DNA of 64,000 nt, from sequence record OQ689735.1; one strand, written 5' to 3'. This document shows positions 2,020 to 63,747 of this stretch, in pieces. Both the position numbers and the translations under genes were made by a program. The notes below the pieces were generated by a model. The model ran no database searches. It was not told the origin of the DNA and saw nothing but the letters and a program-made list of their open reading frames with translations. This DNA comes from Escherichia phage 4E10. How positions within the stretch are numbered: the stretch's first letter is position 1; each line of letters starts with the position of its first letter.

Positions 2020-2355
2020 TTATTCTTCGTCTATTTCATCGATAAAGACATCAATGGCCTCGATAACGGCATCATTGATAACCAATAAAGTAAAATCATC
2101 GTCAGTGCCTTTAGAATATTCTAAAGCATTGATATATGCTTGGTTGGCAAGTTCCCAAGCCTTTTTAAAATAAGGAGCTTCATCATCAGGGCCAACGAAA
2201 CGTACACCTTCAAAGATACGGTTAGCATAATCTAATACCCATTGTACAGGCATGTTTTGAGAACGTTCGTTAAACTCTTCAAAGTCCTTAGATTCAAAAA
2301 GTTCTTCAGGGTAATTATTTCTATTACAAAAAGCTTTACTAAAGTTACGTTTCAT
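2020..2355 (-). CDS. hypothetical acidic protein
   Basis: 111-aa ORF, ATG with GAGGAGAA SD; acidic C-terminus. Confidence 0.55.
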   Translation of the reverse strand: MKRNFSKAFCNRNNYPEELFESKDFEEFNERSQNMPVQWVLDYANRIFEGVRFVGPDDEAPYFKKAWELANQAYINALEYSKGTDDDFTLLVINDAVIEAIDVFIDEIDEE

Positions 2356-2410
2356 AATGTTCTCCTCAAATTATGGGCTCATAATATCTCAATCATGAGC
2401 CCGTGTAAAC

Positions 2411-2674
2411 TTATTTCATATTATTGAAATATTCTTCTGCGATTTCGTCGTTATCATGGTAAACTTTAGAAGACAATTTAACATAACCTTCAGCAGTGAA
2501 CATGTTAATCACAACCTTTACAGTATACCACTGACCGTCTTCATTGCCCATTACCGCATAAGTTTCAAACATCGGATGATCAGGACCGATAACTTTAATA
2601 TCATTCACTGTACGACCGAAATCTTCTGAAACACATTTCATAAAGAAGTTGAACAGTTCGCCGTAATTATCCAT
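2411..2674 (-). CDS. hypothetical protein
   Basis: ORF 2411..2686; track start is TTG, first ATG at 2674 with GGAGA SD; first gene after early promoter at 2712-2750. Confidence 0.5.
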   Translation of the reverse strand: MDNYGELFNFFMKCVSEDFGRTVNDIKVIGPDHPMFETYAVMGNEDGQWYTVKVVINMFTAEGYVKLSSKVYHDNDEIAEEYFNNMK

Positions 2675-2711
2675 TTCGTTCTCCAAGTTGTTTTCTGTAT
2701 CAGTAGTTGAT

Positions 2712-2750
2712 AGTTGTATAGTACCATGGAAGAACGGGGATGTAAACAGT
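2712..2750 (-). promoter_or_regulatory. T4 early-type sigma70 promoter
   Basis: minus strand GTTTAC (-35), 18-bp spacer, TACTAT (-10), upstream of the gene starting at 2674. Confidence 0.45.
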
Positions 2751-2876
2751 TTTGTGAAAATTTTTTTAAAAAATTTTAGGGAATTCTAGGGTCAGGAGGG
2801 GCAATTAAAAGGTAGGATAATATATTATAAAGGGTATAAACTAAATGATGCCTAGAGAGGCCCGGAAAGGCCTAGA

Positions 2877-2911
2877 TACCAAAAAGCCCCAACCTTTCGG
2901 TCGGGGCTAAG
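2877..2911 (-). terminator. rho-independent terminator downstream of the internal-protein-like gene
   Basis: minus-strand RNA GCCCCGACC-GAAA-GGUUGGGGC followed by UUUUUGG; identical copy at 3436-3470. Confidence 0.6.
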
Positions 2912-2915
2912 AATG

Positions 2916-3389
2916 TTATTTGATTTGTTTAGCAGACCAAATGCGGTCTTTAATAATTTTTTGGATGTCTTCAACATACTCAAGAGAGTGAGCATGTGGG
3001 TTATCTTTGAAACTATAAGCACGAGCTAGCTTTTGGCCTTCAGTTTTGATTACTAAAAGCTCTTTAAGGATAGCTTCATATTTGGAGATAATTCCTTTAA
3101 CAATATTTTTTTCTTGTGCAGCTTTAGGATCTGCTTTAGGAGCAGGTTTACCCGAAGCCTTTGCAAAAGCAGCGCCAGTAGCAACTAGACTTTTCCAGGC
3201 CATACTAACCGCATTTCCTGTAAATCCTTCTGCTTTCATGTCGCGAGCAAATTGGAATCGCGATTCGTCAGAAGCATCTTTATAAGAATATTTACCCGCT
3301 GCAATGGCTGCTTTTGCAACAGCTTGAATTTCGGTGCTAGATGCTTCATTTAACACCGCTTCATTTAAAAATTGAGTATATGATTTCAT
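2916..3389 (-). CDS. internal-protein-like capsid-targeted protein (CTS-bearing)
   Basis: 157-aa ORF; N-terminus MKSYTQFLNE|A matches the T4 internal-protein capsid targeting sequence with L-x-E gp21 cleavage site; own SD; bracketed by identical terminator hairpins. Confidence 0.6.
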   Translation of the reverse strand: MKSYTQFLNEAVLNEASSTEIQAVAKAAIAAGKYSYKDASDESRFQFARDMKAEGFTGNAVSMAWKSLVATGAAFAKASGKPAPKADPKAAQEKNIVKGIISKYEAILKELLVIKTEGQKLARAYSFKDNPHAHSLEYVEDIQKIIKDRIWSAKQIK

Positions 3390-3435
3390 CTTATTTCCTG
3401 TTTTAATTCGTGGATTTAATATACTACTATATTTA

Positions 3436-3470
3436 TACCAAAAAGCCCCAACCTTTCGGTCGGGGCTAAG
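3436..3470 (-). terminator. rho-independent terminator at the end of the tRNA/stable-RNA operon
   Basis: 35-bp sequence identical to 2877-2911; hairpin plus U tract on the minus strand. Confidence 0.6.
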
Positions 3471-3518
3471 CCTTGCGGCAACCTTGTCGGGGTTCCACCT
3501 GCTAAGGCAAGTGTTTGT

Positions 3519-3610
3519 ACGAAACGCCGGGATTCGAACCCGGTTATTAAGCAGTTGACGCTACTCAATATTTTTAAAAGGCCATATCTCGACCATATCC
3601 GAACGTTCCG
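3519..3610 (-). ncRNA. tRNA-like stable RNA candidate at the distal end of the tRNA operon
   Basis: perfect T-arm (CCGGG-TTCGAAT-CCCGG) at 3527-3543 and a 7-bp acceptor-like pairing between 3604-3610 and 3520-3526, but no canonical D/anticodon arms; sits between the embedded ORF and the operon terminator. Confidence 0.3.
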
Positions 3611-3776
3611 TCAAAAACGCTACTCGACTTACGGCAAAGATATTTCCTCGAATCGATAATTCGGTGCGCCGTTTCTGCTGTGATGTAAGAGGGCATCAAT
3701 AAACGCAAAGATTATTAACGCAATTCCTTACTCAGGGAACATCAGTCCGACGACTTACCGGTAGCGACCCGGTTTC

Positions 3777-4127
3777 TTAATATTCTTTTAAAGCATCAAT
3801 CTGTTTACGGCGTTCACGCCATAAATCAATTGCTTCATACGCGGATTCAGCATTTCGAATTGGACGGCATTTATATAAAGACTTGTGATTTTGATATTGC
3901 GTAGATAACGGAATTTTATCTAAAAGGTCTTTACGTTCAAAGTATTCGTAACCATCTAAGCCAAATGAACGATTTTTGAGAAATTGCCAATGACCATATT
4001 CGTTTTCGACATAAACATAATCCGCGTGTTGATAAAGCAAATTAATTACACGTTCAGAAATAATAGTGTCATTGTGATTAAAATAAAATGTTAAATCATG
4101 AACTACTAAATAAACATTACCTTTCAT
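3777..4127 (-). CDS. hypothetical protein embedded in tRNA cluster
   Basis: 116-aa ORF, ATG 16 nt downstream of tRNA-Arg 3' end with GAGGAAAA SD. Confidence 0.5.
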   Translation of the reverse strand: MKGNVYLVVHDLTFYFNHNDTIISERVINLLYQHADYVYVENEYGHWQFLKNRSFGLDGYEYFERKDLLDKIPLSTQYQNHKSLYKCRPIRNAESAYEAIDLWRERRKQIDALKEY

Positions 4128-4143
4128 ATTTTCCTCACTTAAT

Positions 4144-4219
4144 TGGTCGAGGCAGTAGGGATCGAACCTACGACCTAGGACTTAGAAGGTCCTTGCTCTT
4201 CCTTCTGAGCTATGCCCCG
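4144..4219 (-). tRNA. tRNA-Arg (anticodon UCU)
   Basis: manual fold: 7-bp acceptor, D and T arms (GGTTCGATCC), anticodon loop CUUCUAA, CCA encoded. Confidence 0.8.
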
Positions 4220-4223
4220 TAAT

Positions 4224-4299
4224 TGGGGTGACCGATGGGAGTCGAACCCATGACTACGAGAATCACAATCTCGAGTTCTACCAACTGAACTACGGCCAC
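4224..4299 (-). tRNA. tRNA-His (anticodon GUG)
   Basis: manual fold: acceptor GUGGCCG/CGGUCAC, C73, anticodon loop UUGUGAU, T arm GGTTCGACTCC, CCA encoded; no encoded G-1. Confidence 0.7.
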
Positions 4300-4412
4300 A
4301 TTAATACCTACTCCAACAATCAAGATGTCTTCACACGAAATTAAGAGAAGAGTGATCAGTTCAACCCTATAATCGCGTCAAGTAGATATTAATGTGACAG
4401 TTGTCACAAATT

Positions 4413-4487
4413 TGGCGGACGTGATAGGATTCGAACCTATAACCAATCGCTTAACAGGCGATCGCTCTGCCATTGAGCTACACATCC
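4413..4487 (-). tRNA. tRNA-Asn (anticodon GUU)
   Basis: manual fold: anticodon stem ATCGC/GCGAT, loop CUGUUAA, T arm ATAGGTTCGAATCCTAT, CCA encoded. Confidence 0.8.
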
Positions 4488-4491
4488 AAAT

Positions 4492-4578
4492 TGGTGGGGA
4501 GTGATGGAGTCGAACCACCCGAGTCGCAATGACAATGAATTTACAGTCCACACCGCTACCTCTACGGGATAACTCCCC
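4492..4578 (-). tRNA. tRNA-Tyr (anticodon GUA), long variable arm
   Basis: manual fold: acceptor GGGGAGU/ACUCCCC, anticodon loop CUGUAAA, variable arm GUCAUUGCGAC, CCA encoded. Confidence 0.7.
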
Positions 4579-4591
4579 TTAATTCTTAATT

Positions 4592-4666
4592 TGGTGGCCC
4601 TGGGTGGAATTGAACCACCATCTGGCGATTATGAGTCGCTTGCTTGAACCTTCCAGCTACAGGGCC
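4592..4666 (-). tRNA. tRNA with CAU anticodon (Met, or lysidine-modified Ile as recalled for the T4 CAU tRNA)
   Basis: manual fold: acceptor GGCCCUG/CAGGGCC, anticodon loop CUCAUAA, T arm GGTGGTTCAATTCCACC, CCA encoded. Confidence 0.75.
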
Positions 4667-4667
4667 T

Positions 4668-4743
4668 TGGTGCTGATTGACGGAATCGAACCGCCGACCT
4701 TCTCATTACAAGTGAGTTGCTCTACCTACTGAGCTAAATCAGC
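4668..4743 (-). tRNA. tRNA-Thr (anticodon UGU)
   Basis: manual fold: acceptor GCUGAUU/AAUCAGC, anticodon loop CUUGUAA, CCA encoded. Confidence 0.8.
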
Positions 4744-4748
4744 AAAAC

Positions 4749-4838
4749 TGGCGGAGGCGATAGGATTTGAACCTATGAGTCGCCGGAGCGACTGCCGGTT
4801 TTCAAGACCGGTGCATTAAACCACTCTGCCACGCCTCC
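4749..4838 (-). tRNA. tRNA-Ser (anticodon UGA), long variable arm
   Basis: manual fold: anticodon stem CCGGU/ACCGG, loop CUUGAAA; 2 nt from tRNA-Pro, consistent with a dimeric precursor. Confidence 0.8.
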
Positions 4839-4840
4839 AG

Positions 4841-4914
4841 TCTCCATACAAGGATTTGAACCTTGGACCTCCTGATCCCAAATCAGGCGCTCTACCAAAC
4901 TGAGCTACACGGAG
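4841..4914 (-). tRNA. tRNA-Pro (anticodon UGG), CCA not encoded
   Basis: manual fold: anticodon stem CCUGA/UCAGG, loop UUUGGGA; 3' trailer is not CCA. Confidence 0.75.
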
Positions 4915-4924
4915 TAAATTAAAT

Positions 4925-4998
<74 letters not shown>

Positions 4999-5003
4999 AA
5001 ATT

Positions 5004-5090
5004 TGGTGCGAGAAGTGGGACTCGAACCCACAAGGAAATCATTCCGCAGCATTTTAAGTGCTGTGCCTTTACCAATTTGACCATTCTCGC
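5004..5090 (-). tRNA. tRNA-Leu (anticodon UAA), long variable arm
   Basis: manual fold: acceptor GCGAGAA/UUCUCGC, anticodon loop CUUAAAA, CCA encoded. Confidence 0.8.
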
Positions 5091-5091
5091 G

Positions 5092-5164
5092 CTGGGAATA
5101 AAGGACTCGAACCTTTGCATCCTGGAATCAAAATCCAGTGCCTTACCAACTTGGCTAATTCCCA
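5092..5164 (-). tRNA. tRNA-Gln (anticodon UUG), CCA not encoded
   Basis: manual fold: acceptor UGGGAAU/AUUCCCA, anticodon stem CUGGA/UCCAG, loop UUUUGAU. Confidence 0.75.
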
Positions 5165-5229
5165 ATTATTAACAAAGGCTCTCTAACAAGAACCCTTGAT
5201 GATAGAGGGTATTAATCAGTGCGATATGA

Positions 5230-5260
5230 GTTAATAATAACAAATAATTCTTAAAGCATA
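5230..5260 (-). promoter_or_regulatory. candidate middle (MotA-dependent) promoter for the tRNA operon
   Basis: minus strand ATGCTTTA (MotA box), 12 bp, TATTAT (-10), about 60 bp upstream of tRNA-Gln. Confidence 0.4.
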
Positions 5261-5261
5261 T

Positions 5262-5549
5262 TTACCATTTATGATGATACATACTTACGATGCATTCAAG
5301 ACCCAAAAGATTCTTGAAAATATCATATTCAAGAGGACCTTTTTCTGTTTCAATAAAGAAATCAAAATTTACTGTATTAAATTTACGGTCTTCCTTCACT
5401 AATTTAACCTGAGAAGATGAACGGTCAATGTAAACCTTTTCAACTTCAAAACATGTTAAAATGCCATAATCATCAATCAAGGCTTTAGCTGCTTCTTGAT
5501 CATATTTATATCCATTTTCAATGGATGATACTTTCGCATAAAGAATCAT
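5262..5549 (-). CDS. hypothetical protein
   Basis: ORF 5262..5555; track start is TTG, first ATG at 5549, immediately after the stop of the upstream gene. Confidence 0.5.
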   Translation of the reverse strand: MILYAKVSSIENGYKYDQEAAKALIDDYGILTCFEVEKVYIDRSSSQVKLVKEDRKFNTVNFDFFIETEKGPLEYDIFKNLLGLECIVSMYHHKW

Positions 5550-5551
5550 TA

Positions 5552-5932
5552 TCAACCTTCATCAACAATAGTGTGCGTATTGGCATTTACAATTTGCCAC
5601 CAATCAAAGCGATTAGAACCATAATCTGGTTTGTTTTCATTTTCTTTGATAATGTCACGGAGTTCATCTTCGGTAGCGGCTTTCGCTATTAAATCAGCAT
5701 ATCCACCACGAGGATAATAATTATCACCTGCAAAAAGTAAAAAGTTTGGTTTAATGTTATTGAACTCTTCAAGAGTAATAACTTTTCCTGACGGTTGAAC
5801 AATCTCTACATATTTATATCCCAATTTTTGAGCAGCATCTACTGCTTCAAGCAAAGTATCATGAGCCCATCCAATTTGACAACCTGGCTTTTCAGATGGA
5901 TTAGCCTGATAATCCGCATACACTTTGTACAT
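5552..5932 (-). CDS. hypothetical protein
   Basis: ORF 5552..5971; likely start is ATG at 5932 (MYKVYADYQ...) with AAAGGTGA SD, 1 nt after the upstream stop. Confidence 0.5.
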   Translation of the reverse strand: MYKVYADYQANPSEKPGCQIGWAHDTLLEAVDAAQKLGYKYVEIVQPSGKVITLEEFNNIKPNFLLFAGDNYYPRGGYADLIAKAATEDELRDIIKENENKPDYGSNRFDWWQIVNANTHTIVDEG

Positions 5933-5933
5933 T

Positions 5934-6119
5934 CTATTCACCTTTAGAAATTTTATCCATAACGATAGCAATTAAACCAATTAAAAATGCTACTACAAGT
6001 GAAAACACATTTTCTGCTGTAGTCAATAATCCGCATATAAATCCAACAAACATTGAAAAACTAAAAGCAGAAGCAGAAATTGCAATAGCAACATTTCGAA
6101 TTAATTCACAACGTTTCAT
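5934..6119 (-). CDS. small hydrophobic membrane protein (hypothetical)
   Basis: 61-aa ORF, almost entirely hydrophobic; directly downstream of early promoter 6142-6180. Confidence 0.45.
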   Translation of the reverse strand: MKRCELIRNVAIAISASAFSFSMFVGFICGLLTTAENVFSLVVAFLIGLIAIVMDKISKGE

Positions 6120-6141
6120 TTTATTCTCCTCGGTAGTTGAT

Positions 6142-6180
6142 AGGGTAATAGTATCACAACTAAAACCCTATGTAAACAAC
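6142..6180 (-). promoter_or_regulatory. T4 early-type promoter
   Basis: minus strand GTTTACA (-35), 18 bp, TGaTACTAT extended -10; upstream of the 61-aa membrane ORF. Confidence 0.5.
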
Positions 6181-6195
6181 TTTGTGAAATATTTA

Positions 6196-6483
6196 TTACA
6201 AAAGATTTTTAGCAATAATCTTGAGATGTGCCGCAGAAATGTGTTTAGCTTTAAACAACGCAGTTTCTTCAGCAGGAGAGATAATGATTGTAGCACCATC
6301 CTTTTTAGCAGACCACCCATCACCTAGGTAAACAGTACCTTTGATTTCTTCGCCATCAACCAAGCTAATCATTGGTTTACCTTCTCGTCCTTTATTTGCT
6401 TTAATAACTTCAGAAGTAAGAGTAGCTTCAGTAATAGTAGAAACCGGGGTAGTTGTAGAAGTAAACTCTTTGAAAGTTTTCAT
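6196..6483 (-). CDS. ipI: internal protein I (capsid-packaged, injected; T4 IPI inhibits GmrSD-type restriction)
   Basis: 95-aa ORF; N-terminus MKTFKEFTSTTTPVSTITE|A gives a 19-aa propeptide and 76-aa mature product, matching T4 IPI/IPI* sizes; lies immediately upstream of 57B as in T4. Confidence 0.75.
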   Translation of the reverse strand: MKTFKEFTSTTTPVSTITEATLTSEVIKANKGREGKPMISLVDGEEIKGTVYLGDGWSAKKDGATIIISPAEETALFKAKHISAAHLKIIAKNLL

Positions 6484-6507
6484 TTTATTTTCCTAATTAA
6501 TTTTGAT

Positions 6508-6546
6508 GAGATAATAGTATCACTACCTCATCAGCATGTAAACAAC
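6508..6546 (-). promoter_or_regulatory. T4 early-type promoter for ipI
   Basis: near-duplicate of the 6142-6180 promoter (GTTTACA ... TGaTACTAT) in the 57B-ipI intergenic region. Confidence 0.5.
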
Positions 6547-6555
6547 TTTGTGAAA

Positions 6556-7240
<685 letters not shown>

Positions 7241-7241
<1 letters not shown>

Positions 7242-7966
7242 TATAGTACCTTTAGTGTATTTTTAATTTTAGAAAAAAGTTCTTCAAGAGAACCATCGTT
7301 TGTAATTACTAAATCGCCATCACGAATTGGCAATCCAGCTTCTGTAATATGTGTATCATTGGATTTTTGACCAGGACGAACTACATGAATTACTGTAGCA
7401 CCCATCGCCCTAGCCGCATCCATTTCATGATCTTGACGAGTATCAGGAACGATATAATAATCATAACCTGAGTTAAATTTATCAAGATAATCTAAAGCAA
7501 ATAATTTTACCCAGTACATGCGGTCGAAGTTATTAACAATCAAATCCGTACCTAGGGCTTGCATCAGACGACGGACTGACCATTGATCTTCAATATTATT
7601 TATAACGTCAATAATCTTGTTAAATGCTACGGAATTAACTGATTCTTGTCCTTCGTCATCAAAAACAAACACACCTTTAATTGGGCTTTTACCATTAAGA
7701 TAGCAAAATGCTTGTTCCATAATCGTGATTACTTCTGATTTAGTCAGATTTAAATTAGTCTCACGATCATAGTCAATTCCTTCAAACTCTTTACGAGTTA
7801 AGCAAGGATAGTCGGTGTTTACTGCAAATACTCCCCATGCATAAGCCAATGCATCCTTAATAGGACCAGCAAGTTGGTATTTAACTGCAGAATAATTGCT
7901 CATGATAAAATCAGCAGTAGTATCTTTTCCACTACGCTTTACACCGCTTAAAAAGATTAGTTTCAT
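7241..7966 (-). CDS. 1: deoxynucleoside monophosphate kinase
   Basis: 241 aa from ATG 7966 (MKLIFLSGVKRSGKDT, P-loop); track ORF has an upstream in-frame extension. Confidence 0.9.
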
Positions 7967-62599: not shown

Positions 62600-62634
62600 G
62601 TATATAATATCATATCCTGTACCAAAGTAAACAA
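62600..62634 (-). promoter_or_regulatory. T4 early-type promoter embedded in an inverted repeat
   Basis: minus strand GTTTAC, 17 bp, TATTAT; inverted repeat GGTACAGG (62593-62600) / CCTGTACC (62616-62623) flanks the -10 region. Confidence 0.45.
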
Positions 62635-62989: not shown

Positions 62990-63026
62990 AGATAATACTA
63001 TCACAAAGGAACCATACTGTAAACAA
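62990..63026 (-). promoter_or_regulatory. T4 early-type promoter
   Basis: minus strand GTTTACA, 18 bp, TGaTAGTAT; same motif family as the 6142 and 6508 promoters. Confidence 0.5.
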
Positions 63027-63041
63027 CTTTGTGCAATCTTT

Positions 63042-63254: not shown

Positions 63255-63498
63255 TATAAATTCTCTTTTAAATGAAAATGCAGGACTTATTGGCATTGCC
63301 TGCGCAAGCCCTCAAGGGGAACGTAGGTTTTTGGATATTTAACGACAGGATAACCATAAACCCGTCATCATTCACATTCAAGAGGTACACCATAAAACTG
63401 CCGGGGTCTTAAAACTATAATGATTCGCAAATCATTAATCAGACAGTTCGATGGCTCCTCGATTTTAGCTCACACTAAGGCAGTGAATCTCCAATAAA

Positions 63499-63747
63499 TT
63501 ACTTCAGTGTTACCACAAAGTGACGAACTGCTTTTCGTGCAGCAGAAGCCAGAGGCTTAGCATACTTAAGTTCATCTTTTTCCTGAAGCTCAGCAGCTAA
63601 TGCAGTTTGAGCAGGATTCAGATGTTTGAAATAACGCAGGATTTCAAGAGCTTCGGCTTCAACATCAATAGATGCGCCATAGTTTTCGTGACCATTATTC
63701 CATGCGTTTCGTTGCAGTTCAAGAGCGTGTTGTAATTGTTTAATCAT
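63499..63747 (-). CDS. rIII: lysis-inhibition accessory protein rIII-like
   Basis: 82 aa, size and position (between gene 30 block and gene 31) match T4 rIII; assignment from memory. Confidence 0.6.
   Translation of the reverse strand: MIKQLQHALELQRNAWNNGHENYGASIDVEAEALEILRYFKHLNPAQTALAAELQEKDELKYAKPLASAARKAVRHFVVTLK

Follow-up and report, generated by a model that had tools for sequence, protein, structure and literature searches.

The ipI gene of Escherichia phage 4E10 lies between two copies of a T4-type early promoter that very probably double as portable homology, so that general homologous recombination between such copies would lose, gain and swap internal-protein cassettes, as judged from the sequences compared here. 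We analysed a 64,000-nt window of this phage (OQ689735.1) together with related loci. The anatomy of the locus, the breakpoints among relatives and the agreement of natural genomes with predicted recombinants are direct observations.

A 2.1-kb query around the locus matched 850 phage records, almost all of them Tequatrovirus and Mosigvirus (T4-like), and the query region is about 96% identical to T4. The genes run on the minus strand in the order 57B (6556-7014), ipI (6196-6483), trna.4 (5934-6119), trna.3 and trna.2, followed by eleven tRNA genes; 57B is the conserved upstream neighbour and trna.4, which encodes a 61-aa membrane protein, the conserved downstream one. The ipI ORF encodes internal protein I (95 aa), as annotated in T4. 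It combines an N-terminal capsid-targeting signal with homology to T4 IPI, differs from the T4T protein by one residue and matches PHROG 4363 (internal virion protein; E 3.7e-48). Its unique part, defined by a gap in homology to relatives, covers approximately 6195-6448 and forms the exchangeable body of the cassette.

Other features of the neighbourhood differ from T4. The part of trna.3 (5552-5971) at 5748-5929 has no T4 alignment, B1.1 lacks any trna.3 and G4507 has two trna.3-like ORFs; neighbouring genes are therefore also polymorphic, there without promoter repeats. The tRNA cluster at 3777-4700 is unlike that of T4, with eleven tRNAs that include His, Asn, Tyr and Met. No segB homing endonuclease was found in this cluster, and a 116-aa ORF (3777..4127) occupies the place of T4's rnaD and the segB-adjacent site.

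The two direct repeats (6137-6190 and 6503-6556) are 54 nt long and 80% identical. They share two exact blocks, one of 21 nt (ATGTAAACAACTTTGTGAAAT, plus strand; 6170-6190 in the left copy and 6536-6556 in the right) and one of 12 nt (TAATAGTATCAC), separated by 16 divergent nt, which make up the variable arm of a hairpin. The original prediction placed near-identical promoter repeats of about 45 bp on both sides of ipI. Their position is right, but 'near-identical' is an overstatement because identity is only 78-80% (38 of 49 positions, or 78%, between 6142-6190 and 6508-6556). The duplicated unit is also longer than predicted, at about 88-91 nt (6111-6198 versus 6475-6565, with 67 of 91 positions identical), and extends over the ribosome-binding site and ATGAAA.

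Both copies lie on the minus strand and have the sequence features of T4-type early promoters, for which we looked for a -35 GTTTAC(A), a spacer of 17 +/- 1 nt and a -10 TAnnnT that is often TG-extended, together with an A/T-rich upstream region and a position immediately 5' of a gene, on its coding strand. The copy upstream of ipI (6503-6556) has its -35 GTTTAC at 6538-6543, a 17-nt spacer and a TG-extended -10 TACTAT at 6514-6519. The copy downstream of ipI (6137-6190), which precedes trna.4 and the tRNA operon, has its -35 at 6172-6177 and its -10 TACTAT at 6148-6153. The same features are present in a further copy at 63024, and all three combine GTTTACA and a 17-nt spacer with TG-n-TACTAT or TAGTAT. 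Each ipI-flanking promoter lies between two genes, directly after the stop codon of the upstream one and ahead of the ribosome-binding site and ATG of the downstream one; the A/T-rich upstream stretch of the ipI promoter contains the 57B stop codon. With up to three mismatches allowed, the 21-mer occurs four times in the window (exactly at 6170 and 6536, with two mismatches at 63017 and with three at 2740), versus no occurrence in 100 shuffles.

The recurrence of the motif, predicted at 62990-63030, was confirmed with a corrected extent of 62995-63037, which includes the 21-mer at 63017. This third copy is an early promoter of the same sub-family (CACAAAGTTGTTTACA...GTGATAGTATTA) on the minus strand, upstream of 30.8 and after the 30.9 terminator. 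Its identity to the members of the ipI pair is 72-74%, compared with 76% between these two; the other early promoters in the window reach only 41-63%. Because the third copy is nearly as similar to the pair as its two members are to each other, part of the similarity between the ipI-flanking copies reflects function or sub-family membership. We considered whether the third copy is itself a site of shuffling and rejected this: 30.8 is conserved in relatives, the indels in that region fall between 30.9 and rIII, and the copy forms no significant hairpin (z -0.2). It is a promoter of the same sub-family, and a cassette boundary is excluded. The indels of relatives between 30.9 and rIII (approximately 63300-63500) amount to about +45 to +155 and -125 nt in Kelasse, Lutter, KNP1 and RB32.

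To describe the variation at the ipI locus, we compared the window base by base with 13 related loci (14 loci in all, of about 850 available). Between the stop codon of 57B and the start of trna.4, these loci carry zero, one or two internal-protein ORFs. A6-6 has none, and its interval consists of 76 nt with a single promoter. One ORF is present in six loci: ipI in the window, T4 and G4507, and ORFs of 85, 81 and 102 aa in CrRp10, ECO07P4 and B1.1, respectively. The remaining loci have two, of 85 + 81 aa in Solly, JK08, HEMP5 and FL23, 90 + 102 aa in S143_2, 95 + 102 aa in LF82-16 and 87 + 90 aa in RPN187. These ORFs fall into six families that are mutually unrelated past residue 12 (all E >= 0.098), and every one of them begins with MKT[FY][KQ]EF, the capsid-targeting signal. 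In every locus, n genes are accompanied by n+1 promoter modules (34 modules across the 14 loci). Among relatives, identity in the flanking genes 57B and trna.4 is 94-98%.

The 81-aa ip6-type ORF (loci L004, L006, L007, L008 and L013) is annotated from an upstream ATG (MEIKMKT...). Because the conserved signal begins at the internal MKT, its true start is probably four codons downstream, which would give a protein of 77 aa. A literature search for the names ip4-ip7 returned only papers on inositol phosphates.

Breakpoints among these relatives coincide with, or adjoin, the repeats, as an alignment of the locus across related phages had been predicted to show. The homology of the window to loci of different content ends at 6160, inside the left repeat, or at 6194, 4 nt past its end, and resumes at 6449-6478. 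The latter breakpoints lie in the leader and the first 12 or so ipI codons, adjoining the right repeat. This leader, with the ribosome-binding site and the codons of the capsid-targeting signal (MKTFKEF...; 6449-6502, minus strand), is common to unrelated internal-protein genes and, on its sequence, is the likely upstream homology arm for cassette replacement. In the Mosigvirus loci, the shared blocks are shorter.

Recombinants predicted from the repeats match natural genomes. In silico deletion of ipI between the 21-nt blocks leaves 76 nt, of which 75 match the natural empty site of A6-6. Similarly, removing ip5 from JK08 between 24-nt repeats yields a sequence that matches ECO07P4 at 374 of 374 positions, and excising HEMP5's second cassette by way of the GTGATACTATTA block yields one of the same length as CrRp10 (395/406). 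Besides A6-6, the empty site is found in slur02, slur04, slur11, slur13, bov9_1, bov10K1, PTE-Eco15 and 11B_SA_NWU, among the best 60 matches and counting single-piece hits only. The prediction that promoters and terminators act as recombination substrates that shuffle injected-protein genes is therefore supported for deletions and additions (75/76, 374/374, 395/406 and a 559-nt excision at a terminator repeat, described below). For replacements, it applies differently: the upstream boundary is formed by the capsid-targeting-signal codons and the leader, not by the promoter core.

Exchange also reaches into the modules. One and the same type of ORF body is found behind different versions of the promoter, hairpin and leader. 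In S143_2 (L009), the middle module (offset 353) joins the 5' arm of one hairpin type to the 3' arm of another, and this hybrid has lost the hairpin (MFE -2.9, z +0.9); it looks like the product of a recent crossover inside the hairpin. Taken together, the reassortment of ORFs and modules and the S143_2 hybrid indicate that crossovers also occur inside modules.

Most of these modules share a secondary structure. The right copy in the window forms a 13-bp hairpin at 6504-6533 (GATGAGGTAGTG/TACTATTATCTCATC) that covers the spacer and the -10 box (MFE -14.8 kcal/mol; z -4.0 to -4.5 versus shuffles), and the left copy forms one at 6140-6171 (ATAGGGT...ACCCTAT; MFE -14.2 kcal/mol; z -4.3 to -4.6). 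Across the loci, 24 of 25 distinct promoter modules fold into a hairpin of 12-14 bp over the spacer and -10 (z -3.5 to -6.6), and at least five different stem sequences fill the same place. In an alignment of 16 modules in one register, 91.7% of cells pair and 5 of 12 pairs show compensatory changes, a level of covariation reached by none of 500 shuffles, with the qualification that the sequences are related and that the structure was derived from the same sequences. Sliding the partner column by one or two positions reduced pairing to 32-42%, and sliding it by three gave 58-72%. The ATAGGGT...ACCCTAT type, which includes the left copy in the window, has a displaced 5' arm and was excluded from this alignment; the Mosigvirus AGGATGAT type (two modules) has a shifted register and was kept, scored as mismatches.

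We rejected the possibility that these hairpins are canonical terminators: the T-run is absent, the stems being followed by CAAAATT or CAACTAC, and a terminator scan called none of them. An Rfam search of 2300-7300 returned only tRNAs and placed the promoter hairpins in no known RNA family. Because G-U wobble pairs are frequent, the U-run is missing and the terminator scan was negative, a role at the RNA level is the better reading. By analogy with what has been proposed for PeSLs (the promoter/stem-loop cassettes of other T4-like phages discussed below), the hairpin is probably an attenuator or an RNA structure for read-through transcripts. The same architecture, with a hairpin over the -10, is seen in four of the eight intergenic GTTTAC-type candidates of the window. 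Among its early promoters on the minus strand, the one upstream of 30.7 (62604-62632) has such a hairpin (GGTACAGG...CCTGTACC; z -5.4), as does the one upstream of an e.7-like ORF (2020..2355), at 2381-2410 (GGGCTCAT...ATGAGCCC; z -4.8).

A second gene in the window is bounded by repeats of another kind. Downstream of rnaC, a 157-aa ORF (2916-3389, minus strand) that starts with MKSYTQFLNEA lies between two copies of a 36-nt direct repeat, the rnaC-end terminator (AGCCCCGACCGAAAGGTTGGGGCTTTTT), at 3435-3470 (upstream) and 2876-2911 (downstream). The copies are 100% identical, which bears out the hairpin repeats that had been predicted around this gene. Each has the form of an intrinsic terminator, with a 10-bp stem containing seven G-C pairs, a 4-nt loop and then TTTTTGG. 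In T4, a single copy adjoins the 3' end of the annotated rnaC. Removal of the 559 nt between the repeats leaves a window sequence that aligns without gaps to T2 (378/392) and T4 (375/392), both of which have one terminator copy and no gene at the exact empty site; T6 is also empty. G50 and A2 each have two cassettes at this site, with three terminators in G50, whose extra ORF starts with MKTYAEFLTEA. The site spans 2876-3470 in the window, 600-1960 in L015 (G50) and 937-2092 in L020 (A2). The last 3 nt of the upstream repeat, together with the insert, form TATAAATA at 3430-3437, the T4 late-promoter consensus.

The designation of this ORF as a second internal-protein gene agrees with its N-terminus and with no family annotation. 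MKSYTQFLNE|A fits the signal pattern (MKTYQEFIAE-like, ending in Glu-Ala), and only two ORFs of the 64-kb window, this one and ipI, carry such a motif. The ORF belongs to PHROG 2280 (unknown function), and each of the 511 records with this gene labels it 'hypothetical', the annotation also given to the other ORFs at the site in G50 and A2. We infer an internal protein here from the N-terminus only. A tentative extension, which we hold to be possible though on balance doubtful, is that the rnaC-terminator site (2876-3470) constitutes a third, unrecognised cassette array for internal proteins in T-even phages, bounded by terminators, with a putative late promoter (TATAAATA) at the junction of repeat and insert and with zero (T2, T4 and T6), one (this phage) or two (G50 and A2) signal-bearing genes. 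Such terminator-bounded, signal-bearing cassettes downstream of rnaC may be under-described, and they lie outside the two IP loci of PMC2839356 and PMC4122927. If their products are packaged and injected, the repertoire of anti-defence proteins and its genomic spread would be wider than in the 'two IP loci' view of PMC2839356.

We propose the following model; in it, the activity of the promoters, the route of recombination, what the hairpin does and whether events ran towards loss or gain are inferred. The copy at 6503-6556 would drive ipI, and that at 6137-6190 would drive trna.4 to trna.2 and the tRNA cluster. Each gene at the ipI locus would bring or keep its own promoter, leader and capsid-targeting codons, so that the locus can be viewed as a row of units, each consisting of promoter, hairpin, leader, signal and variable body, with one closing promoter. 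The portable homology would consist of stretches of about 80-110 nt, roughly 75-95% identical, with exact blocks of 12-24 nt in them; between these blocks the highly active homologous recombination of the phage could cross over, either within a genome or between relatives that infect the same cell. Perfect matches of 12-36 nt should be ample, because T4 recombines at microhomologies of 6-10 bp (PMC9391042). Unequal crossover between the flanking promoters would delete a cassette and the reverse reaction would add one; a crossover in the signal and leader arm combined with another in the next promoter would replace the body. The same logic would apply to the duplicated intrinsic terminator around the internal-protein-like gene at 2916-3389. 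Whole cassettes could also be replaced through the longer homology of 57B and trna.4. The comparative data fit deletion and insertion alike, and carry no event rate. The expected outcome is a fast turnover of injected anti-restriction proteins with the signals for expression and packaging retained.

This model has to be weighed against readings in which the repeats have a lesser or a different part. The promoters might resemble each other only through the constraint shared by early promoters, with the locus varying through the long 57B and trna.4 homology. The near-equal similarity of the 30.8 promoter (72-74%, versus 76% within the pair), which lies 57 kb away at an invariant site, and the 94-98% identity of the flanking genes are what this reading would lead one to expect. 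However, exchange through the flanks cannot alter the number of cassettes, and loci with zero, one and two cassettes differ by exact repeat-to-repeat units (75/76 and 374/374); moreover, promoter modules reassort independently of ORF bodies, and some modules are hybrids. We therefore regard constraint alone as an unlikely explanation. A still less likely source of the variation is a nearby homing endonuclease of the Seg type, such as SegB of the T4 tRNA cluster: repair of its break from a co-infecting genome would co-convert the ipI locus, and the repeats would only mark the ends of the conversion tract. The window has tRNA genes and an unrelated ORF in place of segB, a change of copy number within a genome needs no donor, and an endonuclease would supply the initiating break while leaving homology-guided resolution at the repeats in place. 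These points outweigh the location of segB about 1.7 kb from ipI in T4, the homing endonucleases present there in CrRp10 and FL23, and the entry on SegB-driven preferential inheritance of the tRNA region in the reference list of PMC4122927.

The hairpin, rather than linear homology, could also be the active element, if a structure-specific nuclease or binding protein acted on an extruded hairpin or cruciform to start targeted recombination or the excision and integration of mini-circles. The junctions lie in exact linear blocks beside the hairpin and at no fixed position within it, the frequent G-U wobble pairs suit a structure at the RNA level better than a DNA cruciform, and the terminator-flanked cassette has a quite different hairpin. 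We thus consider this very improbable, even though compensatory changes maintain the stem across five or more versions, and mini-circles and a possible targeted pathway have been discussed for PeSLs and for GGGC/GCCC repeats (PMC2839356). Homologous recombination between modules explains the base-exact copy-number changes better than any of these alternatives.

The exchange of cassettes between promoters matters because of what the genes encode: injected internal proteins inactivate particular GmrSD-type restriction enzymes of the host (PMC12373910, PMC3012670). Swapping them while the signals for expression and packaging are kept helps to explain the quick changes of host range in T4-like phages, and is worth knowing when therapeutic phages are chosen or engineered.

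The locus belongs to a known class. According to PMC2839356 and PMC4122927, Repoila, Tetart, Bouet and Krisch (1994, EMBO J 13:4181) described early-promoter/stem-loop sequences at the highly variable internal-protein loci of T-even phages and proposed that they shuffle internal-protein genes and so change host range. As reported in those two papers, the elements concern the same locus, the same genes and the same idea, with nothing essential that differs from the present case; relative to that account, our additions are matches, exact to the base, of empty sites and recombinants in modern genomes, and the site between terminators downstream of rnaC. The observation is thus correct and its interpretation supported and already known (1994; generalised in 2010 and 2014). 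Because the principle has been published since 1994, our result is a base-exact confirmation on modern genomes and not a discovery.

The closest generalisation is the PeSL cassette of RB49/phi1 and other T4-like phages (Arbiol et al. 2010, PMC2839356; Comeau et al. 2014, PMC4122927). PeSLs and the T-even elements share the succession of an upstream stop codon, an A/T-rich stretch, a -35, a -10 with a stem-loop over it that contains G-T pairs, a Shine-Dalgarno sequence and a start codon, and both flank small variable ORFs with indel or replacement junctions at the motifs. The ipI locus is PeSL-like in its promoter-overlapping stem-loop (24 of 25 modules) and in its junctions at motifs that flank variable ORFs. 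Its modules depart from PeSLs in having -35 GTTTAC instead of TTGACA and A/T-rich stems with no U-tract. More generally, T-even elements follow the T4 early-promoter consensus (GTTTAC), whereas PeSLs follow the plain sigma-70 consensus, and T-even stems are weaker and A/T-richer, without the polyG/polyC of PeSLs. Arbiol et al. regarded the T-even elements as analogues, not homologues, of PeSLs (PMC2839356), and the sequences at the ipI locus agree with their phrase 'analogs, not homologs'.

Two further systems offer partial parallels. T4 deletes and amplifies DNA at microhomologies of 6-10 bp, including a loss of ipIII with effects on host range (Srikant et al. 2022, PMC9391042). As at the ipI locus, short direct repeats recombine there and leave a single copy at the junction, in that case seen experimentally. 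However, those repeats are chance matches of 6-10 bp, whereas the ipI-type repeats are exact over 12-36 nt, functional (promoters or terminators) and present at every cassette boundary. Integron cassettes are similar by analogy only, as an array of small, promoter-served, exchangeable ORFs between repeated sites. Integrons depend on a site-specific tyrosine recombinase and attC, neither of which is present here, where exchange would proceed by general homologous recombination.
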